A stretch of DNA of 61,863 nucleotides, taken from assembly GCA_013115125.1 (NCBI GenBank), contig JABANN010000146.1, forward strand, positions 1-61,863. Reading direction: 5' to 3'. Shown here one piece after another: positions 1,324 to 57,612 of this stretch. The DNA is from Perkinsus olseni (Eukaryota). Position 1 is the first letter of the stretch. Each line of letters opens with the position of its first letter. A model generated the notes under the pieces. It was not told where the DNA came from. It ran no database searches and worked only from the letters and a program-made list of their open reading frames with translations. Position numbers and translations under genes: made by a program.

Positions 1324-3496
1324 TCGCCTCCCAGACTGGGAGTACCAGTGATTCCAGGCCTGGATAGGGTCGCAGACCGGCGTTAGTACCCGCTTGACGT
1401 TACTGATATACTCAACCGATGAGGCAAGGGCTAAGACAGCACGTTTGAGTTGATATGTAACCCAAGAAGGCTGTTCACCCTTGCGCCACTTACAGACACG
1501 CGTCACTACGAGACAGCGTGTTATATCATCGGCGACTCTGGATGACTGCCGTGTGATGACTCTTCACGCCACGAAGGATTGCTAAACTTGTCGAGATCTC
1601 TCCAACTGGCAGGCAAAACTTGGAATGAACCTTAACGGTTACATCGCTGGCATTGCATCCATCTTTCCTGAGAATTTGATCTGTCCTGGTGTGTGCTAGG
1701 AGTGCCCTGGATTTCGCTCACCACTGAGCAGCTTTACAACCGACTGTCTCTCAAGATTCTTGAGTCAAGAACACTCGAGCACCCGTAATGATGTGGCTCC
1801 ACTCATTTCATTCGCACAGTATGCGATATCAACTGAGGGAACCTATTCTGCAAGTAGTACACGGCTGCGTCACCGCCATACTGTCTGCTCACTGCCACGC
1901 CCACTCATGGCTCATTCCATCATGCCACACATTTATAATCGACATTCATAGCCTCGGAATACATAGCCCATCCGCGGGCTCCTACGACATTGTTTACGGC
2001 CATTTGCCCTTCTCCTGTGGGAATTTCCGTATGTCACATTGATGAAGCTGATGGCAATCGATAGACACGCGTTTGTCTTCCGGATTCCGGACGACTTCTG
2101 CGAACATGGGCGTCGGCTCAGAATTCTAGAATTGAGCGACAATGCCTGATGCGTGAGTGAGAAAGAGGTTAGACTCAGCACGTAGCATATGAAAATGCTT
2201 TGGGTTGCTGTGGCTTCTTACTCTGGTTGCCGAACCGTGTGCACGACGTACACTACGTCACCACGAAGTCAGCAAGTCAGCGTTTTTGCGGGGCGGTTGT
2301 AGAGAAGGTAAAGGAACTGGGCGTCCCTAAGGGCGATGGATTCTGTCAGACGGAAGTGAGTAAGAACATCACTCACTTCCACTGTAGGCGCACTGCTGTG
2401 ACGTTTTCCGACGCTATTGGCGAGGAGTGACGGATATCCACTTTAGGACGGCGTTAATTAGACAGCGGCCGTCTACTTTCGTCCGTTCCTGCTAGGAACA
2501 GAGCACATGCGTGTGGAGTTTTCCCAGAGTTTCACCGATTAGATTGATGCTCAATCATAATTATTTGGTATGATGGAACATCAATCTAATCGGTATTACC
2601 GATCCGAGCTGAGACTTGTGGCTTGGAGGGCTTGAGATTTTCTCCTTACGAGTAATGTGTTACCTCCACACTATGCATACCGTCGTAGCCAGCATCCTGT
2701 ACTTACTCTATCTAAGTGGTGTCGCCGTGGGACTCAAGATGAAAGGATCTGCCAAGCGTCACTAGTAAGTGTAAGCTATTCTATTGAGGGACCCGTCAAT
2801 TCCTCTATTCAGCAACCAGGCCTCTCACCCTATGGTTCCTTTGGGAAATGCCAGCCTGCACACCGGAGACTCCTCCGAGAGATTCCTCTCTGAGGAGATG
2901 CGTAGGAATCTCCACCGAAATGGCTCCCAGTAGACAGCCTCTCCTGGCCCAGGCGGGTACGACTACGAGAAGCCGCTAATAAACAACGCCGGTGGGTACG
3001 CTTGCAAGGTTAACGATATAATCCTTCTTTATGTAAGCAGAGACTGCTCCTAGAGAAGTTGACAGCTTCAAGCAAGCGACCTCACAATTGTTAATGTGTT
3101 CTCAGAACAAAGTGGGTGCACCCATATACGGCGTATGTGCTGAGAAATGTGCAACGACCGACACTTGCCCTCCGACTGGCCCTTGGTACTCAGTAGAGTG
3201 TATGCCCTCCGGCCGTTGTTATATTAAGTGCAGATCGAATAAGGTGAATAGTCCATCTGCTGCTCCACTGTGGAAGCATCTTAGTCTTCTCAGGATTGCC
3301 AAATGGGAGCATCCTGTATGTATGTCCCAGGGGTGGGGCAATACGCCTGCTTGTATCTGGCTCAGCTTTGCCCCTGCTTCGAGATAGCCTAGCGATGCCC
3401 CATCGGCGGTCGCTCTCTCTTTTTCAATTTTCAGCTTTATTTTTCTAGTTTAGTACCAGTCGTCCGGACTACCAGAAATAACTCCGTTCACAAATA

Positions 3497-3855
3497 CAGG
3501 GTGCCGACTTAAAAAGGGCAAACCCCTCTTGAATTTTTCGTGCGAACGAGTTGAGAGTTGTAACGGAGGGCACGACGCCGAGTCACAGAAGATGTTCAAA
3601 ATGCCCTCCATCGACGGCGCTGAGTCCGATCATTCTTCACAGCGTCAGCATGGCCTCGGTGATTCTGCCAACGATTTTTCGCGATTTTTTGGCGTTTGGT
3701 TTGACATTTCGAGGGTGAAACTTTCGAGTGAGATGACGCTGAGAACGGGGTTGTGTAGAGCTCGACGAGAGCTTTCGATTGGTGTGCGTTACAACTCTCA
3801 ACTCGTTCGCACGAAAAATTCATGAGGGGTTTGCCCTTTTTAAGTCGGCACCCTG
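3497..3855. mobile_element. Tc1/mariner-type MITE, 359 bp, 69-bp TIRs, TA target-site duplication
   Basis: TA|CAGGGTGCCGACTTAAAAAGGG...(3497-3565) and its reverse complement (3787-3855)|TA, with a single mismatch. No transposase ORF. Confidence 0.92.
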
Positions 3856-5882
3856 TAGTTAATATGCAGCTGTTGAAGGACCAGCAGCCAAGCGGGCATG
3901 CTAGCTTGTATACATGATGAGATGATAAAGTCTTCGCGAATCGTCAATGTAATTGCGATTCTTCGTCCTTGGCTCCGTCCTTCTCGAAGCCGCATTCAAA
4001 CTCGTCACTTTCTCCGCTTCTCTGTTCACAATTGTGTTGGAATCAGTCAGGGCGGGTAGAACACAGCTGTAGACTAGCCTCGGAAGGCCTGTTAATCTCA
4101 ATCAAGTCGATTTGGTCGAGTACACTGATAGAGTTACCTTGCAAAGCATATAAAGGCACTGCCTTGCACAAGCATGCACTTCGCCCATCGTCGCTTCTCC
4201 TGATGCAGTTAGATTAGCAGCAAGGCCCGTTGTGATTGAATCGGACGGCAACCCAAACTTCTCGCTCATTTGCCGAATTTCTGCTATTCCTTCGGCTCAC
4301 GTTTTTCTCCTGTGTGACTGCTGCTTCTCATTCTACACAGCGGCAACCCTTCTACGTTCCAACCAAATCCTGAAAGACCTCCAAGCAGCGGGTTCCTTGT
4401 TTCGGAGTCTGTCGCCGAAGCGACTAGGTTCTCGCTCTATTCTACCGCGTTTGCATGTTCCGTGCTCTATGCACAGCTCTGGGCGCATTTTTTCAATGGT
4501 TCAACGCGTGCACTGTCCCATCGCACAATTCCTAAGAGTAGCTCTGAAGCTTCTGTCTGTATTCCTTAGCTATTGTACTCCCTACGCCCTTCCTGCTTAT
4601 CGTAGATCTCCTATCCTATCCACTCTACTCTAGTTGTTGAGTAGAATAGTGCACGCGTCACCACCCAAACGCGGACTGCGCGTTACGGCGTTGGAAAACA
4701 CGTTGGGAGTCACAGCCTGTGACGGGTTGCGCATAATCTTGCACCTCTGAGCCCGTCATTCACCGCTTGACAGCTCAAGTACAAGTAGCAGCTGAGAAGA
4801 AGCATACACAGCAGTATACGGGCAGTCGGTGAGTCCGGCAGATAAATAAGCATCCGGGCGGAAAGGTGCTGGATGAAACAAAAGTGGTTGATGAACCAGA
4901 AATGATAATTTGCGTTTGATGGAAAGGCTGTGAGCGAGATGAGAGTGGAGAAGGACAGTGGAAGATGGAATTACGCGAGGCCTGGCACAAACCTGCAGGC
5001 GCGGTTACACAACTCTTTGAGCTCCGTCTCGAATAGCCGCACTGTAGTGACTTGAAGTGCAGCTCTACTCCTGGGTCGAACTAGCCAGAGAGAATTGGAA
5101 ACCTATCCTTTTCAACAGCGCGCTGTCATGCCCTCCGTCGCCATCCTGTGCTTCGTGTGTCCGAGTACCGCCACCTTGGATCGAGGCTCCAGAGCCCTCG
5201 AGGGCTACCCGTGAGTGGAGCTTGTGATCTTCCTACTGATGCATTCGATGCCCGTCCCCTTCAGCGAACTGTCCGTTCAGCTGGGTGTTGCACATGACCC
5301 ATTCCGAGGTAGACAGTGTTAGTTTTCGAGGTCAGCCGCTAACTACCAAAGCCTCCTGAACTGTGACGATAGTTGCAAGTGCAACAATACTTAACAGATT
5401 GTTGTCCTCGTGAGAAAAGAGTCGATCTACGTGAGGTCTAGGAGTAAACGATGTGCCTTCTCCAGAACCAAGATGGAACTGTCGCTTAGGTGGCTGTGTG
5501 CGAGACTGCTGTGATACCCATATCGCTTGCCGTCATGCGGCGGTCGATCCTCCTCTCGTTACACTGAAGGCCGTCAGTGGCATCGATAGAGTGAGGGATT
5601 GCCGATTCTGATTCATGCCAACCTCAGAGGGCTCCTTTCTGTTTGTACATCTCGGTTCATAGCTCATTCCGGAGAGTAAAGTATCCGAATCAGCTACGAT
5701 GATCACGGGTGTCTTTCAGGACTTCATTGCTCCACCCTTTTGAGACCATCAGTGTGGCATCGGGTTGGCCTACAGTAGAGGCGCAGCATACTTCATGTAA
5801 ATAAGTCAGATCCAGCGTGACGGTTATTGCGGATATATCACAAAACCCGACCCTTGCCGCCTGGAATTCAATCTCCCATCTA

Positions 5883-6100
5883 CAGGGTGTCGGCTCAGGA
5901 AGAGCTCAGCCCTCATAAATTTTTGCAACAAACGAGTTGAGAGTTATTACGCACACCAAACGAAAGCTCTCGTCGAGCTCTTCATGACCCAGTTTCAAGC
6001 CGCACCTCACTCGCAAGTTTTGTCTTTGAAATGTCCAACCGAACGCTGACAAATCGCGAAGACCTGTTGACAGAACTGCCAGAGGTCATGCCGGCGCTGT
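5883..6100 (-). mobile_element. Diverged, truncated copy of the 3497-3855 MITE in opposite orientation
   Basis: TA|CAGGGTGTCGGCTCAGG...AACGAGTTGAGAGTTATTACGCACACCAAACGAAAGCTCTCGTCGAGCTCT...GAAATGTC...AAATCGCGAA aligns to the reverse complement of ~3640-3855. No second TIR seen. Confidence 0.85.
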
Positions 6101-6233
6101 GGGGTGCCGACGTAAGCGAACTTACTGACATCAGCGACTTCGAAGCAAGATCGGATCAGAGAAACAATCTTCGTCGGTGCGGGAGAGTTTCGGCCACTCT
6201 ACGGGTTGTTCTCCTCTCCACCGTAGTTGGCCG

Positions 6234-9115: not shown

Positions 9116-9315
9116 TAGCTACGATGACGATAACTGTGTGATAATAAGAGTCCAAAAGTTTGAGCATCATTGACCTTCCTCGATGTGACGTTGCGGAACC
9201 TAGCAAGTCACTATGACCAGCTTGAGCTTAACATAGCTGGTCGTCTATGAAAATGAGTGAACGAGCACATCAGTAATGGCAGTTCTAGATCTCCATTGTT
9301 GATATGGTATAGTTA

Positions 9316-9907
9316 CTAGCGTGAAGTTGTCGAAGGCATTGTGGGAGTGGGGCCGGCGGANNNNNNNNNNNNNNNNNNNNNNNNNNNNNNNNNNNNNNNN
9401 NNNNNNNNNNNNNNNNNNNNNNNNNNNNNNNNNNNNNNNNNNNNNNNNNNNNNNNNGGGAAGTCGGCCCGGCGGAAGTCGGCCCGGCGGAAGTCGGCCCG
9501 GCGGAAGTCGGCCCGGCGGAAGTCGGCCCGGCGGAAGTCGGCCCGGGGGGAGTAGGTCCACCACCACAAGTACAAGGTTCGTCAGACCCTTGGCAGACGC
9601 CCCCACCAGGTCCAAACTGGTAGGCAGCCTTGCAGTAAGAAGTGGGATCACCGGTCTGCTGTTGGCAATAAGCATCACCATCAGGGCATGGTCCAGCGGA
9701 GGGTGTGGGTGAAGGAGGAGGCGGCGGAGTAGTGGTACAGTAGCAAGGAGTGTCAGTGCCATGGCAAACACGGTTGCCCTGATAGAACTTGCAGTAGGAG
9801 CCAGGCTTTTGAGCGTCGCACTGAGCATCTCCTGTAGGGCAGGAATCCTGTCCTAAAGCGATCTGGGCAATAGCAACCACGGCAAGGGGCAGAATTGCGA
9901 AGCGCAT
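9316..9907 (-). CDS. Secreted Cys-rich repeat protein with mucin-like (GPTSA)n tail
   Basis: Signal peptide MRFAILPLAVVAIAQIALG, two SYCK 4-Cys modules, then GPTSA repeats interrupted by an N-gap. The repeat frame resumes as SAGPTPTMPSTTSR* ending at 9316. Confidence 0.85.
9457..9546. repeat. 15-bp coding tandem repeat GGAAGTCGGCCCGGC (GPTSA), continuing into the gap
   Basis: About 6 near-perfect units next to the N-run. Confidence 0.9.
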
Positions 9908-10299
9908 TTGTATCCTTGAAGTTAACGCGGTGGGGGCAAAAGAATTTGTTCAGTGGTGATCGGGTTCCCTCAGCGTAGCTAACGGTGTGCATGCGTGCAC
10001 CGCGCCATCACCAAAAGACTCAGCGGCTGGTGGTCATCGCCTGTAGCTCCGACAGCGCAGCTCATCGCCAAATTCCGATGCCTTGCTGCTCAGAGGTGGA
10101 AGCCAGGGCCTCTGAAGTCTCTATTGTTGAGATTGTTACGGTGTCGTTACGCATAAATATGCAACACATAGGGAGACAGCGGCGTGACCTTGGACCCGTC
10201 CCTACGACCAGCCGAGTGTTCAGATGCGCTCAAGGACAGGAGGATGAAGGGTGACGCTGTCACGATTGTGAGACGACAGTTCGGTTCTCCTCATGCCTA

Positions 10300-17360: not shown

Positions 17361-20300
17361 ATGGTCAAGAGTCCAAGTCGAGGTCTGAAGACACCCAGGC
17401 CATCAGAAGCCTACAAGCCCACCCCTCCTAACTATCACTCCTTCGCTGGGCCGCCCGTCACGCAAGTAGGAATTCTATTGACGCTGGGGAAGTAGCATAA
17501 AATCACTCCACTCAGAATACCAAAGGCAACCGAAATGTCAAAGTGCTGGCGAATCCGGAAGGCCAACCCTTGAACGCTTCGGAGAGAGTGCGGCTTTGCG
17601 GGGTGAGAGGAATCTTTTAACTTCGTCTTGTGCATGCTCGTCGCAAAGATACGCTGCCCTGATGAGGTTTGCTTCGCGGCTGGGAGCTGGGACGTCGGAC
17701 AGGAAGTGATTGTCAATTTTTCTATCAGAAACGAATGGCTGATGCCCGTCACAATCAAGTAATATGGTATTCCTCTGTGGGTGGTATCTTTCACTCAGGT
17801 ACACTCTGCCGAGGTCGAGGTCGGTATCTCTTCCGTATCCAAAACCGATAAAGATATCTCCAGGATTGACCGAGGAGATCCCCGTCACATTTCGGTAGGA
17901 GTTGGGGGATTTACGGTATGAGACTATCTTCTCAGGCCAACCGCGTATGAGCCTCTGCTGGACGAGATTGTCGTTCATGTAAAGACACCCGCAGTGGCCG
18001 ATGTCCCGCCGGCGTTCGTCATGTGCGTGATGTGCCAGGGTCAACCTAAGATACCTCCTCTCACCCAGATGCATCCGAGCAGAGGTCAACACCCTTTCGG
18101 TCAGCCACAGAGTCCCCAACTCGACTGTCGACTTCGGGCTGGTCCCGGCCGGGGAGACCAGCGCCAAAATTATACAGCTTTTCAATACTGGTGAGGCGTG
18201 CTTTTGCCATACCACTCCTCTCGCAACTCTTGCCTCAGGTTCCCGTGTAGCTCAGATTGCGTGGAAGACCTCTGAGCCTTTCTCGGTAGATCCTGACTGC
18301 TGTCCGGCGACGATCCCCGTCGGAGGCGCCGCCAAGTACAGTTTGAGAATCTCGCCGGAGAGAGGGCAGACTATAGAAGGTTTGGTGGTGGCAACAGCGA
18401 CGGCTGGGGTGATAAAATACCCTTGCCGGGGATCGAACCTGGATGCATTCCATTGTCAGCCGTCCGTCGAGGATTACTCGAAGCTCGGAGCTGACAGTGG
18501 AAATAATTATCATATGATGCACGAAGCTCAGGAGGTTCCTTTGAGGGTAAGCCCGGAGACCGCGTACGCCGGTGGGGTATCGTGTTTCTGCTACCAACAC
18601 GTGTACAATAGAATTCTTATGAATTTATGCTACCAACACGTGTACGATAGAATTNNNNNNNNNNNNNNNNNNNNNNNNNNNNNNNNNNNNNNNNNNNNNN
18701 NNNNNNNNNNNNNNNNNNNNNNNNNNNNNNNNNNNNNNNNNNNNNNNNNNNNNTCTTATGAATTTATGCTACCAACACGTGTACAATAGAATTCTTATGA
18801 ATTTATGCTACCAACACGTGTACAATAGAATTCTTATGAATTTATGCTACCAACACGTGTACAATTTGCGTAACGGAAATTGCCTGAATCATTCTTCTCC
18901 CCGCGAGCCGCCCCCAAGGTACGTGGCGTCGCCAAAGTACCCCATCTCCTCTTCACCCACAGTGCATCAGCTGACCAAAAGATTTTCACCACTGAGGAAG
19001 GCCATGCCCGCATTGATTTGGGTAAATACCCCCGCGTCCCGCCCGGCTAGAGTCGCGTCAGGCTCCTGTGCACCGGAAGTATCGCACACAGCCAGCTTTA
19101 CCGTAACCAACGCTACTGCTGTGAGAACCGCATTCGCCGTCCGACCTGTTATGAGAGCATCCTTGGTAGAGAGCCCTCCAGGGGTTGAACTGCTTCAGGG
19201 CGGACCCCCCTCAGGTCGCGGGCAGCCCGTTCGACGTCCGCCTTCCGGACGGCACATCAGTCGGTCCATCGAACCCCTGTTCGATAGGCCCGCTGGAATC
19301 GGTACCTCTGATAGTCTCGTACAAGTCTTCGACCGTCCTTGAGAGAGTGTCCGCGGAATTCGAGATCTCCACGGTCGGAGTGTTGAAGAACACCCTCAAG
19401 CTTGCTGCAGCTGCAAAATGCGAACCCATCCCAGTCAAAGTCAACGCCAAGAGCCTGTCGTTTGAGGAATTGCAAGTGGGCAAGGTTGCCACTAAGGTCT
19501 TCTATATTACGAACGAGAGCCCGAACGTGAGCACTCAGTATCAAGTGGTCCATGCTCGCTGCAGCGATGTCGGAGAAGGAGTGGGGTACTCGGTGCTGGA
19601 GATTGATAACTCATGCGGTGCCATCGCCCCTAAATCCACTGCCACTATCACCGTGACCGCGCGCCCCGAAATTCCCGTGAACTACTATCGTCGACTTTGG
19701 ATACTCGTCAGACATGCCTCGGAGCCCCTCTATGTTGATTGCATCGTCAACAGCTTCGACGGTGACCAGCATCCGATGAAGCTGACCTACGCTCACGTCA
19801 AGTTGTGGCGAGCCATCACTGGCGCTGGACAAGACAGTTTTCCTCCGTCCAGCTCGGCGCATCGGCTGCCTCCAACTGCTGCCCTCGAGGATTCGGAAGG
19901 CCCCGCGGAACCTTGGGGAGAATTAACGAAGCCGCCGGGGATACTACCCGACAGTACGATCACTCTTGGGAAGTGCTTGCCAACTAGCGGGCCTCACACG
20001 AGGAGGGTTGTTGTGAGCAACCCTAGTCCGGGGAAGGTGGCCGTGTACTGGCCCAACCATCACAGCGCTTCCAAGCCTGCTTTCGATATCCGGCCAGAAG
20101 AGTTGGAAATACCCGGCTGTAGTAGTCGGGAGTTCACCCTCGAGTACCATCCAGCAGGAGAGGGCGACTACCGATATACGGTCGCGTCAATGGACTGCGT
20201 GATGGTACCGAAGGAAAACAGGTCGGTCGGGCCTCGAGACGCCGTTGGAGCCTGCCTTGTAGGAGCTATCGGATCGGCGATGCAGCTATGCTAGTCCCCC

Positions 20301-23300
20301 CGCACACCTCCACAGTGGTGGCGTCGGCCCACTCGTGGCCCTCTAGCTGTCGGGCACAACCAAAAGTGACAGTAAACTCGTCCACAGCAGGGAAAGCGAC
20401 CGTGAGGTTCCGAAGCCTGACCCCGGGGCAGACCGACGCGCAGGTCAGTCCAGCTGCACTCGATAGAACCGCTGTAGCCCCACTGCCGCAGGTCGTAGTC
20501 CTGTACAACCACAGTGACGTTGTCGTCGGCTATCGGGTCGAATGGCTCCTTGAAAAAGAGTCGGGCGATTCGTCCTCGGAGGCCTTCCGCTGCTTCCCTC
20601 CCATCGGGTGAGAGATGACGATGTTCAGCTGTCAGACTGCTGCCCTTCAGAGCGATCGAACCTCGAGCGTTTGCACTGGTGGCGGTGCTCTACCGCCCTC
20701 CAGTCGACAGCCCCGCGCAGGGAGGGGCTGTCGAGCACTCCGGAGCCTTCACCCTTCTTTTGAACGATCTCCCCGAGGCAAGGGTCAGGGGCATCGGGGT
20801 CCAGGGGAAGTGCTGGTTGGACTACCCTCTCAAGGTTGGATCAGACGAGAATCAGGTGATCAGTCTGGGAGAGGGCTAATTTCGTGGCGCAGTGACGCTT
20901 TGGACGGCCCTAAGGCTTTCGGGCTCTTCTCGCATGCTTCGTCGTCTGCATGAAAATTTCGTGGCGAAGTGACGATTTGGAAGGCTCTATTTCCTTCGAG
21001 CTCTCATCGAATGCTTTTGCGGAAATTCCGCATGAGAATTTCGTGGCGCAGTGACGGTGTGCGGCCTACCTGATACCAGCTATCGCTCTCGACTCCAATG
21101 GGCGTATCTAAGGTTGATCATAGGTCATCACATTTCCGCCCTGCATCACCGGAACAGTCGCCTCAGTGAGCGCGCCTCTTGTCAACCCTACCGGTGTACC
21201 TCTGAAATGGACGATCGACATACCAAGAGAGTACAGGAATCTTTTCTCCATCCCCGTCACGAACGGGGAGCTCCCTGCGTATGGGAGCACCAGCGTGTTG
21301 GTGACCTATCACCCGACTACGACTCGAGGCCGTGAGACTGATATTGGATGGTTGCAAGCAATGAGCGCTCCGCTGTAAGAGGCATTGGTATCTTTCTACT
21401 CTGTCTGATGCACGCTTCGATCCCACTCTCAGAGTCGGAGGTGGAAGGGAGTGTACAGTCCGCGTGAAGCTGCTCGGCTTCAGTCAAGATCCTCAAGTCC
21501 GCTGCGAGCCGCCGGCCATCGACCTCGGCCCGATACTAACACTTCACCGAATCACCGCGGCCGTCCGAGTAATCATCTGTCCGCATCTTAGGTTGATGCT
21601 AGGAAGATACGCATTTTCTAGGTGCGCAATCTCTCTAACGTAGAGGTCTGCTACGTCACTCGAGTGACCCTCCTGTCACACCAGTCCCCGCAGGGCGATC
21701 CACCTGTCCCCGAGGATACCGACCTTTCTGCATCTTGCAAGGTTCGACCTGAAGATACTAAAGGAAGGGTCGCACCGGGTGCCGCGCAGTCGGTGGTCTT
21801 CTCCGTCAAGACAGCAGTCAGGGGAAGTTACCGATTCCGGTACGGAGAACGTTCGGTATCCGCAACCATGGCGCTGCCCCTCCCTAGCCTCGACGTCTTG
21901 CCCATCCGTGACCTGCCGGAGGCCCTGGAGGTCCCCCAACCCTCCCACTCCGGGGAGTTGTGCGGGGGAGCGCCTATCGCCAGCGTCATCGTCACTGCGG
22001 ACTGTCAGTCGCCGGTGGTAAGGTTCCTTGGTCGGAACGAAAATTAGTAAGATTTTTCCGAAGGTACAAATCGGGGACCTGCGGATAGTCAGCGACAATC
22101 TTTGCGATAGCAGTATGTCCAATGCCGACCAGAGTGATGACGGTGAAATCCGTGGACGCATCTTTGGTTACCATGGGCAATCACAGAATGCAACCTCAGG
22201 GCCGGCCAACTGCCGTCCCGTGTCGGCCCTGTGGCAGCACATGATGGTCGATGATATGAATGCGGCGTTGAGAGGCCCTCTGAAGGACACCGAGAGGGAC
22301 TTCGCCGAGAGGGAGTCCGGCCTGGGTGAGTTCACGGGTAGGGCGGGACTGAGACCGCAAGTGTTGGATTATCGGCAGGCCCAGAAAAGAAGGTGGAGTT
22401 GTTCGACAACCTGGACGATGCATTCACTCTTAATCTCGGCTGTGCTTCTGTTGGAGCTTCAACTGTCACCATGTAGAGCATCCAAGGTTGATCCTAGTTC
22501 TTGACGGGATAGAAAGATACGCTGCCGTCACTAACACTTCGGACGTCCCTGCCAAGCTGAGGATCATCACGCCCGATGACATCAACCTCAAGAGCCCCGG
22601 CATCCCGCTCTGGGCTCACGGCCATCTGGATGGTCAGGACATGGAGGAGGCCAGGCACCATCGCTGGGTAAAGAGCAATATCTTGCTCACTTGCGATTCC
22701 TCAACGTCGAAGAGCAGGTGATGGATGAGCATCTTCTCGACATCCGACCTCGCCAGAGCCTCGTCGAGCCCGGCAAGACCGTCCATATTAAATTCACTTA
22801 TCGCTTCGCTTACGTCGGCATGCACGTCCTACCAATGGTCCTGCAAGTTGAGCATGGGAAGCATCTACGACTGTATCTAACGGGAACGACCCTTCCCAGG
22901 GCTGTCCCGAGGCTCAGCGTCAGGCAGGAGAACATAGTGTAGGTTTGAGGAGGGGCTCGTCCGCTGTATCGCGGACTGGTCATGCGTACGTATGCTAGTG
23001 AGTGACGGCTACGAAAAAGTGGCCAAAATAATTTCTCCTTCCAGCGACTCGTCCATTTTCCAGAAATTCCGACGCGCGCATTTTGCGCAAGATGTGCTTA
23101 GTTTTGTCTGACTCTTTCTACAGAGGAACGGCGCGACCGATTTGTCCCCTCTGAAATTGAGCCCTCCTCTTTTCCCCGTCTACAGGCTTGCCCAATCAGG
23201 CTCGGCGCCCTCGGCCGGGTTGATCAAGTGCTCGAAACCTGTTGAAGGTTTCTGCCTGTTCTTCGCGCCTTCAGTTTCGACCCAGTACCGATCGGGAGGG

Positions 23301-26300
23301 GAGCGTGCGTGCATGCGATTGAGTTATCAAATATCGGAGGTTATGTCCTGGAATCTGGTCTAGCTGTTTTTCAAAGGAATCCTTAGGTTGCCCGTGCACT
23401 TGGCGGATTCGGTCGGATTCCATTGACAAGCTCAACAAAGACAACTACAATTTCAAAGTGCTCGGCATCCGTCCATCGTCCGGATTCCTCAAGGCTAATG
23501 TGAGACCCACATTACCTTGAGGCGTCAACCTAAAATACTCCTATGCTCNNNNNNNNNNNNNNNNNNNNNNNNNNNNNNNNNNNNNNNNNNNNNNNNNNNN
23601 NNNNNNNNNNNNNNNNNNNNNNNNNNNNNNNNNNNNNNNNNNNTCTTCCTCTTCCTCTTCCTCTTCCTCTTCCTCTTCCTCTTCCTCTTCCTCTTCCTCT
23701 TCCTCTTCCTCTTCCTCTTCCTCTTCAGTCCAGTACATTCCTACGCGTTATCTTCTACTACCCCTTGGTGGAAGCCACGGACTACCGTGCGCAGGTACGC
23801 CTCTAGGGATCGCTCGAGGGCGCTTTGTGAACGCAGGGAAACCGACCAATGCGCTCAACTTGGTCGTTGTAAAGATCTATTCGCCTCTAGTGGGCCTCAT
23901 CGTGTGAAAAAATGCGTATCCCGCAATTTCTGTTCTGGACTCACGAAATAGAATCCGTTGCAGATGCGGTTGTGGAGGTGGGGTTTTGAAATCGTTCTTC
24001 AACCCACGGCACGGTGCTTTGGGCTCGACCCGGGAGTGACCAGGATAATAGTGGAGCATCTAGGAATCGTCATACCTGCCCAGACCATCATCTTCCGATT
24101 TTTATGATATACCCCAGGTGCACGTAGAAGTGGTGGCGGAGAGCTCTGGAAGCGCCGATGAGATCGTCCTGGAAGAGCTGGACTTTGGTATTATTCTGCC
24201 GGCATTTGACCCGCGAAAGGTAAGTTCCCTCGCTGCTTGGTGGTGCTTCTATGGAATAGTAGTGATTGTCTTACATGAGAGGACAATTAGACTGCAGAAT
24301 AATGAAGTCCGCTGAAAATACTATTTTGTCTTGCTGTTTTCTTGCCTGGGAAGAGTGTCTAGCGGCTCGCTCCTACGTTACGGATGCAGCCTTGGTGACG
24401 CTCCGTCCTCTAGGACGCTCGCCTCCGTCTCCCTTGGCTTTCTCGCTGCCTACTGTCTAAAGCACGAGTTAGTGAGATCGCTATCGGAGTGTTATAATGA
24501 TAGTATTATGTATTAACGAAGCCAATACCAGTTCCAAGTTGATTGGTGAGATCTATGATAATAAGCTTTCAAATCGGAATCTCTCTCGCTCGGCCCTGCT
24601 GACGGACCGCGATGAACCACCTCTTGCGGACGGCTTTGACGAGAAAAATGATCTCATGTGACATGAGAAGCAACCGCTTGAAAAATTCTTGAAACTCTTG
24701 CAATCTTGCAATTCCTCAACGTTCTTCAGACCACCCCGCGGCCCTCGTCGAGCAGTATCTTCTCGGCTCATCTGCCTCTGCAGCCCCTCAGCCCAGTCCA
24801 TACCTACGGGGCGGCCCTCTCGCTGGAGCATCTTGATTTCGGCCGAACACCAGCTGGTATGTCCGCTGGGGGAAATTGAGGAATTGCAAGATTGCAAGAT
24901 ATCACTAGTGTCTATTGGAAGGTTCAATCAGACATCGCATCACTGTCCTTGTCAACTACACAGAGGAGATGGTGATGCATTACAAGTAGTATATCTTATG
25001 CGCATGCGTGCAGCGGGGGCTCTCGAGGATGGCCATCGCCAGGTGGGACCTACGCGGTCTTCTGAGCGATGGTGATGGTGGTGGTAGAATTACCATCAGT
25101 CCTCAGGTGAGGGATTAGGTCGAGCGTGGGTTTCATGGAATTTAAGATACTTTCAGGAGGGTTACATCTTACCTGGAGAGGAACAGGTTGTGGCCTTCAC
25201 GCTGTTGGCTCCCTCAGTAGGGCGAGCGGAGGATTATGAGATCACCATGCTGGCGATTGACGCCGAGGTCCAATGCTCGGTAAGGGGATGGTGGGAATCC
25301 CACCGTGGGATGGGTCGCTGGCGAATTGAGGTGTGCGGGGATCGAACCCGGGACCTTCGCTGTGGAACTGATTGTGGTTGACTGCCTGCTGGAGATTGCT
25401 ATCCTGACTGAGCGTCGACTTTGGATACTCTGCTTCTTCATCCTGGTCATACCAAAATTCCCCCACTGCAAAATCGTCCTCATTGTAGCCTCAATGCAGA
25501 TAGTCTCCTGGGTGCATCTGGAGGACTTCAAGCAGGGCAATTCTAGTCAGAGTGAAGGCCCCTCACCGATCGCGGAGTAAGGAGAGGGGGCTGTGCTCCT
25601 TACTGTCGTGGATGGTCAGGCAGGAGGAGGTCCTGGCGGAGCATAGGGACCATCGTCATCTGCCGGCCTATTCTACCAGAGATCCCTTCAAACCGAAGCA
25701 TGTTTCCGTCGTTAATCGCCTCACGGTATCGAGGTCAGTATCTCTCGGGAAAAGTCCCAGGTTCGATCCCTGGTCCGGACATCTCAGGTATAGGAATCTC
25801 GCATCGACCGTTGGAGGGCAGAAGTATTTGAATGATAATCTCGGCAGATCGGTGATGCTGTCGATTGATCTGCCCTCCGAGGCTCAAGTGGATGACCTCC
25901 ACCAAAACCTGGTAAGATGTCCAGAAATGCGAAACATGAATCGCTTCGCTCCGCCGTAGGTCCGGTCGATGTTGCTGAAGTCCCATGCGAGAGATCAGGA
26001 GTCTATTGCAAGGAACGCTAGTCGGAGAGATGATCCTGGCATGAGGTCAGAAACAGGGGGTCGATGGCACGTGTCGGAGGAACGATGCCGTTTTCACAGT
26101 TAGAGTGTTTCATGAAGAGGATAGAACCGAGGGGGTGGCCGCTCGAGAAAGTTCAGTAGATTCGTATCGGGCTCCTCCCAGAGTTATTTACCGCGAGAAT
26201 ATCTAGATCTTTCTTGTTTTATCAGAGCCCGATTAGTTCAGCTGGATAGAATGTCTGCCTACGGAGCAGATGGTCGTAGGTTCGAATCCTGCATCGGGTA

Positions 26301-42270: not shown

Positions 42271-43244
42271 TCAAGGCTTCTGATATATCCTAACAGGGGC
42301 ACCGTGGCTGAGCTGGCAAGGCAGCCCCCTTACGTGTCGATCATGGCCTTGTAGTCGAGGACAAGTCCATCGGTCGAAAAGTCGCGTATGAAAATATCAA
42401 CTTCTTCCCGGGTGAAGGGCTCCCCCGCGTTCTCCATCACAGCTCTGACGAAGTACAGCGAGTTTTGACGAGTCGGACACGTCCCAACGGTGACCCAATC
42501 GATCAGATGATCATCAGAGGGTCTCGAAATCAATAACAAACTTTGCAAAGTCGAAGATTTCAGTCGCCATAGTGAAGTCTTCAGCACAAGCTGCTACTAA
42601 TTGCTGCAAATATGCAATACTAAAAGAGTACCACACCTTCGCGAGTTTGACAAACGCGCTAATTCTGACAGGATTTCAATGACCGGGCCTAGCTGACGAT
42701 CCTCTCGTCTGTGAAATCCTCGCCGTTGGATGCTGCGATGATCTTGACGTACCGGAATGCTTTGATACTGACTAGCCCGGTGTCGCCTGGGTCCATAGGG
42801 TTGAAGAAGGCTGACAGGTCGAGTTGGGTGTGCTGCATCAAGTGCTCAGAGCATCGTCCACAGAAATCGAGAAATTGTTGTGGTGACACCCGAGGGTCCT
42901 CCACCTTAGCGGCTTTCACCTCTGCCTAAAGATTGACAGAGACGTTGTCTGGCGGCGTGAACGACGAGCTCCGAGCTTTGTCGACTGACCTCGAAAGCCC
43001 GGACCATCGCGTTGGTCGGACTGAAGCCACAGAGACGCAGCAGATGGCCGAGGTCCGAAGGTGAGCAGCCCTGACCGTCCTGAGGACCCAAGACTGTGGC
43101 CGAGTTTACGGTGGGAATTGTACCCACCTGATTGAAGCTTTGGTATTGCTCCAGATAATAATCTGACTTAGCCTTGGAAGCACCGTTAGTCGCTGAGTCT
43201 GCTTGTGCGCGGATCGTCGGATTCCCATTGACCGGTCTACTCAT
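42271..43244 (-). CDS. Calmodulin/myosin light chain-like EF-hand protein (multi-exon)
   Basis: DLGHLLRLCGFSPTNAMV, FNPMDPGDTGLVSIKAFR|AVMENAGEPFTREEVDIFIRDFSTDGLVLDYKAMI. Confidence 0.8.
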
Positions 43245-44287
43245 GTCGACGCGTTTAAAGTAGCTGAACAGTCAGAGGAGCTCAGTAGTCGATTCGTGCC
43301 AAATCACTCGACCTCGGTGACAAGCTCCACTGGAGAGGCATGTGGGCTTCGAAAACTTCCCTGGGGGAAGTCACGGTGTTGAAGATGACTCCTTGGGAAC
43401 ACAATCGGAAATGTTTGAGTGGAAGAAATAATCCAACTGAGAGGATAGTAATAATCATCTCTACAGTGTCAATCATCGACCAATACTTATCAATATCATA
43501 GTGCTACCAAAATGGGAGGGTATCTTGCCGTTACGATTCTGTGTGATATCGGGCGAGCGATGTCACACGTCAACAACGGTGAAACTAGCGTTGGCCAGCA
43601 AGCTAGACTGCGTCGCACCAGTGGCCGCCTCGAGACTGTCATGCTGATAGTCCCAACAGTCATTGGTAGTGAACTCGTCAGTAAACCCTTCAAGTTCATT
43701 CATCAATCGACATCCAAGTTGTGGCGGGAATCTTGGATTCTCAGACCGTGGCGACGTGGCGTCCTTGATTGTGTGATGCACCTTGTGTCGCTATAGCGCA
43801 CCTTTTAATAAAAAAACTCAGAGATTTGCTCCACCAAAAAGGCCTGATGCCCTCGGCTCCCAGGAGCCTGTGTCGTGAGAGACCGCGGGCGGGACACCAC
43901 GTGCTTCATGAGGACCCCTACGCTTTGTCACATTGAGCTGACTTCGGACCCTGAACTTGAATACGCCGAACTTTGGCAGCGGCAAAGAGGCACTGGTCCA
44001 GTACAGGACTAGTTCTCAGAATCAAATCTCAGAATGCATTCCGAAATCTGTTCTGGATGCAGTTTAATGAACACGATTTCGCCAAAACTAATTCTGGAAT
44101 GTATTCTAAATTTCGGAATAAGTTTACTGAACACCCCGGTAAGCTTTGAATCGAAAATTGTACGCGCGGGATAGATTCGCCCGTTTCAAATTCGTGCATC
44201 CGACTTCGCTCGCCTCCGCGAATTTGGCGCAGAGTGGCTTGATTTCGGAGGAGAATTGTACGTCATTGCCGTTACATTCGGGTTTAT

Positions 44288-45689
44288 CAGGTCCGGCGGT
44301 GACCCTAGCAGACCTGCAAGAGATGCCCGGACTATGAGCTTTCCATCACCTGCGATCATAATGAGGTATCCGAGTTTGCCAGATGCCGACCGGATCAAGG
44401 TCAGTCCGTAAGATGAGTATAAGGATATGAAAAGGGAACTTCCGAAGATTTGGCACGGACATTGTCGACTCATTGTGACTTCCCTCACCCCGCCTTCTGA
44501 GGCACTGCCAAGATCCAGGCTCGTATTGGCTCTCCAGAAGGTGTTTTAGTTCCCGGAGACTGCAGTGTTCCATTGCCAGTGGAGGGGAGAAGGACTGTGA
44601 TGGGAACAACGAATAGTCGGGAGTATCTTTTCTCCGCGTCGTGGATGCATGGCAGATGCCTCAGCGGACTGCCAGGGTCGTCGGAATTCACGCAAGGCTG
44701 TACAGGGGGGGCCTCGGGAACTGCGAGGATCCGTTCGTCCGACGGACGATCGCTACCGGTATGGGAGGATCGGAGCAAAGTCCGGGCACCCACTCGTAGG
44801 TTGGAGAACTCCTGAACCCGGTGGGAAGTGGGAGCATAATACCCGATGCAGGATTCGAACCTACGACCATCTGCTCCGTAGGCAGACATTCTATCCAGCT
44901 GAACTAATCGGGCTATATTAGTGAAGCCGAGATCCGAGTCTCATTTCAGCGGCATGTAACGCTGGGGATATCCTCATGCGAAACATTCAAACTTCATCGC
45001 CGGCCGAATGTTCGTTTCCGTATGACGTCGGATTGACTGCATCCTCCTAGTGCTTCACGCGCATGTGGGAGTCGAAGAAGCTTGAGAACTGCTGTAGGCC
45101 GATGATTGGCTATGGGCTTGCAAATGCGGTCGAGCTTCCCACCAAAACTCGTCAACTCGACTCGTCCCGTCCTGCCGATCAATTCTGAGATCATCGGACT
45201 GCTACTAAACAGCTGCAACAGATCGTACGACAATCGTTCGGTATTGTGAACAGGTGTACTGTTGCGGTCTGCCAAGGTGCAGACAGCAAAACAATCCGGG
45301 TAGCAGAGGGTGAGCCACCACGGCGGCCAAACCAGCAGATACACAAGCACAATAGCCGACGCTCATCACTATAACGGTCTGGCGATGACTGATTAAAACT
45401 ATTATAGTACTGAGCTAGAGCTGAAGCACAGCAAGCTACGTGGGAAAGTGGGTCACGTGCCCATGCATGCACCACTCCACACTACGCAGGCTTCGCGCAG
45501 GGATCACACCACCGCGACCACCGGCAAATCTAGGCCATGAATTACTTCTCTTTTTGAAGAGTCTCCAGCACCAGTTCGCCGCTCAGCGGCAGACCTGGGA
45601 TGAAGGCCGCCCAGAGAGAATCCAACTCCATGACATGCCTCGGTTCAACCTTACTTCTCCCCACGATCTACTTACCTTTCGTGTTGTGA
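44288..45689 (+). pseudogene. Decayed, internally deleted inverted duplicate of the 3' part of the giant Cys-rich gene
   Basis: RCPDYELSITCDHNEVSEFARCR (~44320) matches RCSDYEPFTTCDHDEIAKLIKCR (~32990) with the same splice sites. Frameshifts and a W-to-stop change near 44812. Last-exon homolog SNSMTCLGSTLLLPTIYLPFVL* ends at 45689. Confidence 0.8.
44840..44913 (-). tRNA. tRNA-Arg(ACG)
   Basis: Exact reverse complement of the other two copies. Confidence 0.93.
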
Positions 45690-45767
45690 GGTTTTACTCG
45701 TGTTGGAACATGGAGAGGGCGTGGCACAACCGAAATATGTCCATAAGCAGCAAATACATGTTGTAGA

Positions 45768-45839
45768 GGCCCTGTGGCGCAACGGTAGCGCATCTGACTC
45801 CAGATCAGAAGGTTGTCCGTTCGAATCGGGCCGGGGTCA
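45768..45839 (+). tRNA. tRNA-Trp(CCA)
   Basis: Identical to 29034-29105; followed by AGTTTT. Confidence 0.95.
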
Positions 45840-46019
45840 AGTTTTCAATTCCCACATCAAGCCGAGGGAACGTTCGGATAGTCATTGAATCCGCCAACCG
45901 CCGCTAAGAAAAGATCCCCAAATCACTCGGGAAATTCGTCAATGGTAACGCTCACGAACGACTCGGAACAAATACCACTGCCCGATCATGTCCAACCCGA
46001 ACTTTGTATAAACGCAAGT

Positions 46020-46710
46020 CTACCCAGAATACTCAAAATGATTGAATCGCTCTTCTGATCTCCAATATACTTCCCCGTAGGAAGCGAGCACTTCGCTGCC
46101 GGCCTAATGCAGTAAAGGTCGTCCAAGTCGCTCTTGAGATGAGATACTCACAGGAATATCGCGTGTGGCCACAACCTTTGCCACGCGTCGCTTCTTGTCT
46201 TTGATGAACTTTGCATTCAACCTGTTTGAATCTTTACAATCATTGATATATCTCCCCCAGACGTTAAATGAATACTTCGCATCGATATGGCAGTTGATGC
46301 CGAAGCCTCCTGAAAGGGGAAGGCACCTCACACAACCAACCGACATTCCATCAACTCACCCATAATGTAAGACCGGTCTCGAGCTTTGAGCGTCTGAGTT
46401 AAACTGAGGAGGCGTCCTGAATACTCGCAGATGAGTGACCCCTCGGGAAAGCATTTGGTAGTGAATAGACCGAGCTGTTTCTGTACCACATCCGATGCTC
46501 GAACTTGCAAACCTGAAATGTACTTTTTCCCATCGCTAGCTGCGTGAAATTCTTTTGCCAGGCGACCGCGAGATGGAATAAGATTCGGGACGTACCAGGA
46601 AATGTCGAATAATCGAACTTCACGCGACTAAGCGGCAAGCCCGGGAAGACCTCAAAATCGTCATCGCCGTTGGTAGACAGATTGACAAGGTGAAGAATCG
46701 TGAACTGCCT
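46020..46710 (-). CDS. Small SET-domain protein (start not resolved)
   Basis: LGLFTTKCFPEGSLICEYSG, HIDAK...WGRYIND, NAKF, VVATRDIPAGSEVLASYGEVYW. Confidence 0.85.
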
Positions 46711-55060: not shown

Positions 55061-57612
55061 CTACACTAGATTGGCATGCGGGCCATGCACCACGCTCGGG
55101 GTCACCACCATTTCACTCAAGAGAAAACCGAGAGAAGCAACGACGCCGATCGACACTACGGAGACCGGCAGACCAGGGCGAAGGAAATCCGAGGACTTCA
55201 GCCAGGGGTGATTATCGTCGCCTTGCCGCCTGATCGCCGTGGCGTTGATGTTAGGCGTTGAACTTATCGGCAACGCACAGCCTACCGAGAGCGCTAAAGC
55301 CGCAGGAATGCCGAGGACTGCCACGCCGCCCTTCACTTGAGGAGGGACAACCACCTCTGCCAGAGAACAGATAAAGGGCATGAGAACATTCGCTGCGGCC
55401 GTGTGAGACACTAGAGTAGACACGAGAGTCACAAGAGCTACAGTGGCCAAGATGCAAACCCATAGGGGCGCTTCTTCGATGACAGACGAGGCGAAGCCGC
55501 TGGCGACTACTAGCAGCTCGGAGTCTCGCACGGCCAGGGCAAGCGCGGAGCCACCGGCGAGAAGGAAACATACGTCCCAAGGAAGGGAGAGAAAGTCAGC
55601 TTTTGTGAGGAGGTCGGGGACTGCGAATAGTGCGACGAGTGGCAGGAGAGCCGACAGGGAGATGTCGCCAAAGACCAGTACTGTGAAAGACGAGCACAGC
55701 CACAGCGTGACCGTGAGGAGGACGACGGCGATGACGTAGAGGCGTCTCCAGTCGTCACAAAAATGACCGCTTCCACCAAGCCGCGGAGGGAGCACCAAAT
55801 GGTCAGAATCAGCAGCTAGACCGCCGCCCGCAGCACTGAGGAGAGCCTGTCGGGCATCGTCAGCAGGGGCGAGGTAGTCGGGTTTGAGCAACCAGAAGGT
55901 GAGTAAGAGCAGCACGAAGCTGGTCGGAATGGCGACCGCACACCATTCGCTGAACGACAGACCGTAGTTGCTGTGTAGCAAGGCAAAGGCGACAACGCTT
56001 TGTGGCGAGGCCACCGGGCTGGTCATGCCACCCACATTACACGCGAAGGCGATGGCGACCAGCAGTGACCGACCGTAGTTCAGCGTGGTGACGCGGTTTT
56101 GAGGAAGCTCATCGAGGATCGGCGAGGCGATACTCATGCAGAGGACGCTCGCCGCTACGTTACCGACAGCGGCGCTCGTGCTGTAGCCGAGAAACATCAG
56201 CACCATCAGGGTACGTACGCGACTGCCACCAGAAGCAACTCGTAGCAGCACGCAGGCTAGCTCCTTATCGATACGCAGCTTCGAGAGGGCCGCTGCTAGA
56301 GAGAAACTAGCGAGGACCATGAGCTGAGCGCCGCTCCACATGGCTGCCATCGCCATCCTCGCCGCAGCAGCCCGATCACCATGACTGGACGGGAGGGTGT
56401 CCAGCAGGACGACCAATAGAGGGACTGCTAGGCCGGTGACGTACAGGGGTACTGTGCCCAGGGACCATAAGGCACTGGCGAGCCAGAGAAGCGCTAGGCA
56501 CCTCGCGGCTGGACTGGGCAGACCGGGGATCTTGACCAACAAAATTGATAGAAAAACCGCAAAAACAATGGTGTAGACCACCACTGTCACCCAATAGTCT
56601 CTAACGTACTGCCAACAACCTCGCTCGGGTATCTTCAGCTCAACCGAAGCATACAAAGGCGACACCAAAGAGCTTCTCTTGCCGTCCTCGGGACTCAGTG
56701 AACTCGATCGCTGCAGCGACGTCCGCCGCGGACCACCAACAGCCGGGGCGATGCCCAACCGACAGCGCTGCCTGAAGGACCAACATAGACGAGGAGGTCA
56801 GAGACGGCGGTACCTTTCCAGCTTGATGAGGTCGTGCCACACCGTGCCTCGGTCCCACACCAGCATCTCGGACAAGGCTTGTGAGAGCTCCTCAGCAGCC
56901 GCAGTCTCGTCACCACCACAGAAACTCGAGGCGTAACTGCTCATAGCGATGCCCAGGGGAAGGAGAGCAGCAGCACCTTCTTTGAATGGAGGTGATCATC
57001 GGCCTGACCTCAACCTCGATGATGCGGTTCATCTCGGACAGGGCGTCGCAGTCGGCGATGAAATATTGGCAGTGCGAAGATCCGTGGAACTTGTCAAATT
57101 TTTTGACAAGTTTCCGAGCGCCCTACACGACGATTACTCTAAAGGTTTCTTCACAGGAGCAGCAGTCACCTCAGAATTGAGCCACACGAAGTTGCAGAGC
57201 TCATTGAGTTCCAAGTAGACCTCCGCGCAGGATTTGCGGTACTTCGGGTGCACCATCGGTTCCCCAGCCTCGCCGAGGAGATCCTCCATCCACGACGACA
57301 ATCTCGCGAGAATCTCGAACCCCGGACGATCGACTTGCGGTATCATCGTCACAAATTTACATCGGAAAAGTAAGCTTGCACTCTGGTCAGCTCCGACAGG
57401 ACCTCTTCGCTGAACTCCTGAACAGAATAATGGTGATGACAAGACCACATGGGAGATGAGTCCACCTGCCAGGCAACCGGTGCTGGCCGGATTCCCGCTC
57501 CTTCGAGGTCGTGGCGCTGGTCCTTGATGAGCTTCTTCAGGCGCTTGTAGTTGATGTAGCCGTCGTGCCACGGCCCGAAGGCGTTGAACTCCAATTCGTA
57601 GCTGAACTTCAT
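55061..57612 (-). CDS. SPX-domain SLC13/CitMHS-family phosphate transporter (Pho87/Pho90/Pho91-like)
   Basis: N-terminal MKFSYELEFNAFGPWHDGYINYKRLKKLIK (SPX), VYLELNELCNFVWLN, and a multi-TM region with AFACNVGGMTSPVASPQS, LPWDVCFLLAGGSAL, ALPISSTPN. Confidence 0.92.

Follow-up and report, generated by a model that had tools for sequence, protein, structure and literature searches.

In animals, paralogous tRNA genes stay nearly identical while their flanks diverge, the flanks map the duplications, and the genes are often clustered or intronic, according to two studies (PMC2997554; PMC4981973). This turnover of tRNA families by local or segmental duplication (Rogers et al. 2010, PMC2997554; Velandia-Huerto et al. 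2016, PMC4981973) is the closest described system to the one considered here. We analysed a stretch of 61,863 nucleotides (nt) of Perkinsus olseni DNA (contig JABANN010000146.1, forward strand, positions 1 to 61,863; the window, below), in which copies of a tRNA-Arg(ACG) gene and of a tRNA-Trp(CCA) gene stand among the exons, and the exon relics, of what we model as a protein-coding host gene. As in the cases treated in those studies, tRNA genes have multiplied here with their flanks and the paralogues are near-identical. The present case differs from those in that the flanks resolve, one exon after another, into a damaged copy of one particular host gene, in that two tRNAs of different specificity moved as a unit, and in that it is found in an intron-rich flagellate rather than in an animal.

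Two other kinds of system are also close. Like duplicated (unprocessed) pseudogenes, the copied locus is collinear with the parent in exons and introns, keeps splice motifs, carries frameshifts and stops and is truncated, but unlike them this relic embeds two intact, presumably functional genes for RNA polymerase III (Pol III), so that part of it would be strongly constrained. Nested intronic tRNA genes offer a parallel for the tRNA-Arg gene, which is predicted to lie antisense within a host intron. They differ in that the modelled intron here measures 128 nt and is mostly filled by the 75-nt tRNA, and in that the tRNA-Trp gene would lie outside the coding region.

ARAGORN and Rfam/Infernal agreed on six tRNA genes in the window, five of which, each called by both methods, belong to the subject of this analysis:

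32244 to 32318, plus strand: tRNA-Arg(ACG) of locus A, antisense in the modelled E3-E4 intron of the host gene
29034 to 29105, minus strand: tRNA-Trp(CCA) of locus A, on the same strand as the host gene
44840 to 44913, minus strand: tRNA-Arg(ACG) of locus B
45768 to 45839, plus strand: tRNA-Trp(CCA) of locus B
26227 to 26301, plus strand: tRNA-Arg(ACG) of locus C, the third copy

All five scored between 61.8 and 63.4 bits against Rfam RF00005, for which the gathering score is 29. The Trp body (72 nt) does not differ between its two copies, and the Arg body is identical across its three copies, as judged from 75 consecutive invariant alignment columns and, for the copies at 26227 and 32244, also by string comparison. 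An earlier reading made from the sequence alone (the sequence-only reading) had described the Arg(-)/Trp(+) pair at 44840/45768 as the mirror image of the Trp(-)/Arg(+) pair at 29034/32244, with tRNAs identical between the two loci, and both statements hold. Between A and B the identity ends at the tRNA boundaries on both sides; between A and C, for tRNA-Arg, it runs 4 nt further upstream and 5 nt further downstream, giving 85 nt at 99%. About 20 nt before the tRNA, all three Arg copies share a GATCT motif.

Outside the tRNA genes, locus B (44283-45942) repeats locus A (33032-28900) collinearly and in inverted orientation. This alignment, on which the sequence-only reading had been staked beforehand, was found by blastn, by tblastx and by a repeat search that recovered the same arms. 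With blastn, 44321-44405 matched 32994-32909 (74%, E 4e-9), 44478-44566 matched 32891-32803 (75%, E 8e-12) and 44616-44646 matched 32777-32747 (87%). With tblastx, eight collinear blocks ran from 44283/33032 to 45942/28900, adding the pairs 44972-45010 and 32203-32165, 45570-45656 and 29311-29225, and 45853-45942 and 28989-28900. The homology reaches 700 nt past tRNA-Arg, and it follows the exon/intron pattern of the host gene, splice motifs included. Pooled over four exon blocks, 260 of 371 flank positions are identical (~70%), a Jukes-Cantor distance of 0.38 substitutions per site. The flank identity of about two-thirds that had been estimated by eye was borne out at the place where it was made (50/77 for 45592-45669 against 29288-29212), as was the homology claimed 3' of tRNA-Trp, where 18 of the 21 positions of a 21-mer at 45864 agree with 28978-28958. 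Inside the homologous segment is a core that cannot be aligned; it is 2831 nt long in A (32150-29320), whereas in B (45025-45561) it measures 537 nt. The net difference of 2294 nt agrees with an earlier claim that ~2.3 kb of the middle had been deleted, but the core of B consists of 537 unalignable bases and was replaced rather than simply deleted.

We built the exon chain of the host gene at locus A, from P1 to E4, by hand, using open frame, phase and GT-AG boundaries only; codon-usage scoring and unconstrained dynamic programming of splice sites were not relied on, as they read straight across the tRNA and left out conserved exons. The model, on the minus strand throughout, is as follows:

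34163-34031, minus strand: host exon P1, 5' limit open, placed by the in-phase chain and a match to protein P0001 by eye
33986-33546, minus strand: host exon P2, placed by P0001 homology and the in-phase chain
33395-33289, minus strand: modelled host exon Ea
33236-33100, minus strand: modelled host exon Eb
33025-32915, minus strand: modelled host exon E1
32867-32775, minus strand: modelled host exon E2
32441-32336, minus strand: modelled host exon E3
32207-32040, minus strand: modelled host exon E4
29381 to 31993, minus strand: middle of the host gene, an in-phase path of eight putative exons from E4 to E5 (strict search), tentative and absent from B
29195 to 29312, minus strand: host exon E5, probably the last coding exon, with acceptor TTTTCTTCAG followed by G and a TGA after a hydrophobic tail

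The eight GT-AG exons from P1 to E4 chain in phase over 432 codons with no stop and 25 cysteines (Cys). Exons Ea to E4 account for 240 aa and 20 of these Cys, and are separated by introns of 52, 74, 47, 333 and 128 nt. Directly before E5, locus A carries a strong GTGAGT...TTTTCTTCAG intron that is not present in B. On the real minus strand the top-scoring spliced chain reached 328, against a mean of 200 (standard deviation 53, maximum 308) for 40 mononucleotide shuffles and 128 for the plus strand. The sequence-only reading had spoken of a giant Cys-rich gene: the Cys-rich character stands for Ea to E4 only, and the gene, modelled to at least ~950 codons, was not confirmed as giant.

Outside evidence for the host gene comes from its upstream end. 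The open reading frame (ORF) at 33535-34026 (minus strand) had one match among 1.84 billion representatives searched with HMMER, the 171-aa protein P0001 from a relative, at 59% identity and E 3.4e-37; residues 14-38 of P0001 also agree with exon P1 at 17 of 25 positions, by eye. The 12 residues between these two matches may be read-through of a short intron of the relative, P0001 then being an unspliced ORF call. P0001 is encoded on a single 2844-nt contig, and the sequences suggest a gene family that seems confined to this lineage and unannotated. No homologues were found for the ORFs at 29735-30286 (against longer proteins), 32803-33045 and 33211-33519. None of 14 distinct ORF pieces of the host region matched a Pfam family, the ESM Atlas returned nothing at 0.9 or above, and, of 533 pattern stretches that the A2 alignment matched in metagenomes, 0 were confirmed. 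We consider the host gene real at its P1-P2 end and the model beyond it reasonable. At the end of E5 (29195-29260, minus strand) a Ser-rich stretch is followed by a hydrophobic tail and a TGA, and the same layout is seen in B at 45630-45689 (plus strand); the predicted C-terminal tail resembles a membrane anchor or a glycosylphosphatidylinositol (GPI) signal.

The two tRNA genes of locus A take different places in this model. The tRNA-Arg gene at 32244 lies antisense in the 128-nt intron (32208-32335), where 17 nt separate it from the E3 donor and 36 nt from the acceptor of E4, and both of its flanks would be conserved among copies because they are exons. The tRNA-Trp gene at 29034 starts 89 nt past the predicted stop codon and, in this model, does not lie inside an intron.

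Locus B keeps recognisable copies of five host exons, in the following state:

44291 to 44399, plus strand: psi-E1, with two 1-nt deletions and in-frame TGA (from 44300) and TAG (from 44306); acceptor and AG/GTCAGT donor kept
44502 to 44618, plus strand: psi-E2, with insertions of 14, 8 and 2 nt, a terminal TAG and the donor changed from GTGAGT to GGGAGT
44744 to 44826, plus strand: psi-E3, with indels of +4, +2 and -5 nt and 50 of 88 columns identical
44968 to 45024, plus strand: psi-E4, first 57 nt only, 39 of 57 identical, acceptor AG lost; homology stops here
45025 to 45561, no strand assigned: unalignable segment of 537 nt, for which neither the 2831-nt core of A nor the rest of the window showed any homology
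45569 to 45689, plus strand: psi-E5, with one +3 insertion, the frame open and the TGA kept in the same place
45853 to 45942, plus strand: stretch 3' of tRNA-Trp that is homologous to 28989-28900 of A and closes the duplicated segment

The lesions of psi-E1 to psi-E3 agree with the sequence-only reading of these flanks as frameshifted, stop-containing homologues of exons of the minus-strand gene. Intron remnants also persist in B, and CAG and GAG acceptors are among the splice motifs retained. Because splice motifs survive (the psi-E1 acceptor and the AG/GTCAGT donor), the copy must have been made from DNA and not from mRNA, as had been proposed. The accompanying claim that splice sites are retained is true of psi-E1, but the psi-E2 donor and the psi-E4 acceptor are lost. 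Copies of P1, P2, Ea and Eb, which lie upstream of 33032, were found neither in B nor elsewhere in the window by blastn or tblastx. Therefore B was probably a gene fragment from the outset and not a whole gene that died, and the earlier description of a dead duplicate of the host gene is right about the broken exon copies but has to be restricted to the 3' part. For the ORFs beside B, no relation to the host gene could be detected.

The two-locus picture of the sequence-only reading, correct for A and B, has to be widened to include a third and smaller broken fragment, locus C, which consists of tRNA-Arg-26227 and a relic of exon E3 only:

26304 to 26427, minus strand: psi-E3 of locus C, agreeing with A at 90 of 132 columns; it carries six indels (net +7), and its acceptor has changed from CAG to CAC

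We consider it probable that a partial segmental duplication carried the tRNA genes along, and that purifying selection has since acted on the tRNAs while the exon fragments decayed neutrally. A segment of ~4.1 kb, comprising the 3' part of the minus-strand, partly Cys-rich gene and including the antisense tRNA-Arg of the 128-nt intron and the tRNA-Trp beyond the stop, would have been duplicated at the DNA level. The first copy would have been placed in inverted orientation, 11 kb away and between unrelated ORFs, where it became locus B; a second duplication, of ~0.3 kb, would have taken E3 and tRNA-Arg in direct orientation to a place 6 kb away, giving locus C. The copied exons, with neither upstream exons nor a promoter of their own, would then have drifted neutrally, the outcome being ~30% substitutions, indels that shift the frame, stops, the loss of splice sites and, in B, a replaced core. 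The tRNA genes, which have internal promoters, would have stayed useful, every base of the mature tRNA being kept by purifying selection, possibly with the occasional assistance of gene conversion. We infer here that A is the parent, that the tRNA copies are active and that selection is the main force. At the 29.9% divergence of the flanks, the probability that 73 neutral positions would remain unchanged is ~5e-12.

The blocks conserved between A and B coincide with the modelled exons, which also favours this explanation: 243/367 exon positions are identical against 160/433 intron positions (Fisher p ~1e-16). Several observations weigh against it. The exon/intron contrast depends mostly on one long intron (333 nt). 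The differences show a weak bias by codon position (23/98, 32/98 and 39/97), for which a chi-square calculated by hand is ~6.3 (2 degrees of freedom, p ~0.04). The shuffle control of the host model is moderate (z ~2.4, with 0 of 40 shuffles reaching the real score), the searched pieces of exons Ea to E5 have no outside homologue, codon usage separates coding from non-coding DNA poorly in this window, and both the expression of the host gene and the silence of B are predictions. In B, psi-E5 is open with its stop kept, psi-E4 is free of indels over 57 nt and the psi-E2 indels add up to 24 nt, such that some residual constraint on B may persist. Finally, the terminators of two Arg copies fit poorly with full tRNA activity. 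TTTT follows at +4 for Trp-29034 and at +3 for Trp-45768 and Arg-26227; Arg-32244 is followed by TTT only, its first TTTT standing at +76 inside antisense E3, and Arg-44840, despite its perfect body, meets no run of four T (T4) until +407 (44433-44839, minus strand).

These terminators also bear on the alternative that survives best, which is that the tRNAs owe their identity mainly to gene conversion among nearby copies, some of which, such as the terminator-less Arg of locus B, may be dead passengers. We regard this as unlikely. All copies lie within 20 kb of one another, the Arg genes of A and B are both perfect in spite of their missing or shortened T runs, A and C share those extra identical bases beyond the tRNA, and tRNA families are described, in PMC4981973, as evolving in concert. 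Conversion tracts should, however, run over into the flanks now and then, and between A and B the tRNA identity stops short of them on both sides; short tracts would still be compatible with this. As the identity goes no further than the tRNA ends for A and B, and 4-5 nt past them for A and C, purifying selection alone suffices for it, and no conversion tract is visible.

Partial duplication from A, with selection on the tRNAs, could also be mistaken in its direction. The older copy could be B, or a third locus since lost, in which case A would have gained its 3' exons and tRNAs by duplication and B would be the decayed source. We find this improbable. There is no outgroup, so the parent copy is unpolarised, which counts against our own explanation; B is compact (1.66 kb), and, by reading, E2 could splice straight to E5 in phase in A. 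Nevertheless, frames and splice sites are intact in A across the shared exons, the strong intron before E5 is present there and not in B, all of the lesions are in B, and B has neither a start nor an upstream exon.

It is slightly less probable still that B is alive, its exon-like blocks belonging to a divergent paralogue with another exon structure or to a non-coding transcript. The open frame and shared TGA of psi-E5, the psi-E4 block without indels and the 24-nt total of the psi-E2 indels would suit such a gene, the phase between psi-E1 and psi-E2 would, by reading, be restored if splicing used another acceptor, 11 nt inside psi-E2, and several ORFs of more than 100 aa overlap B. Such a gene would nevertheless have to accommodate the two stops and two 1-nt deletions of psi-E1, the TAG and lost donor of psi-E2 and the lost acceptor of psi-E4, as well as the absence from B of the start and the upstream exons. 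None of the 5 ORFs of B matched a Pfam family, the only nearby hint being a SET match at 46328-46627 (minus strand) with E 0.012, below the Pfam cut-off, and the spliced-chain score of the block that holds most of B (from 44605) was 177/274, inside the shuffle range.

The least probable alternative, to which we give very little weight, is that the shared flanks are not gene relics but conserved cis-elements that serve the tRNA genes as upstream control, 3' trailer or terminator, or else part of a tRNA-carrying mobile element: the three Arg copies do share about -100 to +125 nt, including the upstream GATCT, and the first T4 of the Arg gene of A lies within antisense E3, but the A-B homology extends far past tRNA-Arg along the exon/intron pattern, flank identity is 60-75% only with many indels, the T4 run is lost at the Arg gene of B, no terminal repeats were found and only 2-3 copies in the window, and Rfam returned nothing besides the tRNAs. 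A tRNA-derived short interspersed element or a transposon-borne tRNA was considered separately and rejected, as the tRNAs are perfect and the repeats within 25500-47000 are tRNA and exon blocks only, none of them terminal.

The remainder of the window (G+C ~52%) is eukaryotic in character, with numerous short open frames and three assembly gaps. The following features were identified away from the duplicated loci:

58598, minus strand: tRNA-Ser(TGA), called by ARAGORN and Rfam, the sixth tRNA of the window
19170-22044, plus strand: piece of a CFAP65-type flagellar gene with an Ig/ASH-domain exon (PF24507, E 1.3e-20)
55061-56797, minus strand: CitMHS transporter ORF of 578 aa (PF03600, E 5e-23)

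From the CFAP65-type exon and the CitMHS ORF we conclude that the DNA comes from a flagellated eukaryote. Inside or adjoining the CFAP65-like gene is a tandem repeat (18585-18865) with a period of ~39 nt, which translates to LMNLCYQHVYNRI-like units and flanks a 99-N gap at 18655-18753. Near the start of the window, two paralogous small ORFs, Cys-rich and Pro/Thr-rich, align between 6-342 and 9579-9918 at 74% identity over 341 nt; they correspond to the minus-strand ORFs 2-376 and 9245-9949, their motifs resemble CPTGDAQC...YCK.YQG..VC.G, and the second enters an assembly gap within a TSAGP repeat. Inverted repeats pair 3492-3565 with 3787-3860 (74 nt, 97%) and 3638-3858 with 5880-6101 (222 nt, 77%), and a direct 71-nt match lies close by at 5881-5951; the repeats of 3492-6101 may be a foldback element or the remnant of a mobile element. 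An EF-hand-like identity read by eye for the ORFs at 42330-43271 found no Pfam support at E <= 0.1 and was dropped.

A search of a limited body of literature found no paper in which the flanks of tRNA genes are presented as a record left by dead duplicates of host genes; the framing itself follows directly from the tRNA turnover literature. Taken genome-wide, tRNAs in or against very short introns might have spread mainly together with pieces of their host genes, such that tRNA flanks would form an archive of dead fragments, with exon pieces perhaps partly co-opted for Pol III, as the first T4 of the Arg gene of A in antisense E3 and the GATCT shared upstream of the three Arg copies could suggest; we hold this wider extension to be improbable.

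Within the window, the locus is a clean and datable example of how the number of tRNA genes grows, and it adds an example rather than a concept. The flank divergence of ~0.38 substitutions per site provides an internal neutral yardstick beside fully constrained tRNA sequence. For annotation there are two warnings: exon-like fragments that adjoin tRNA genes can be relics, and a tRNA can nearly fill a 128-nt intron.

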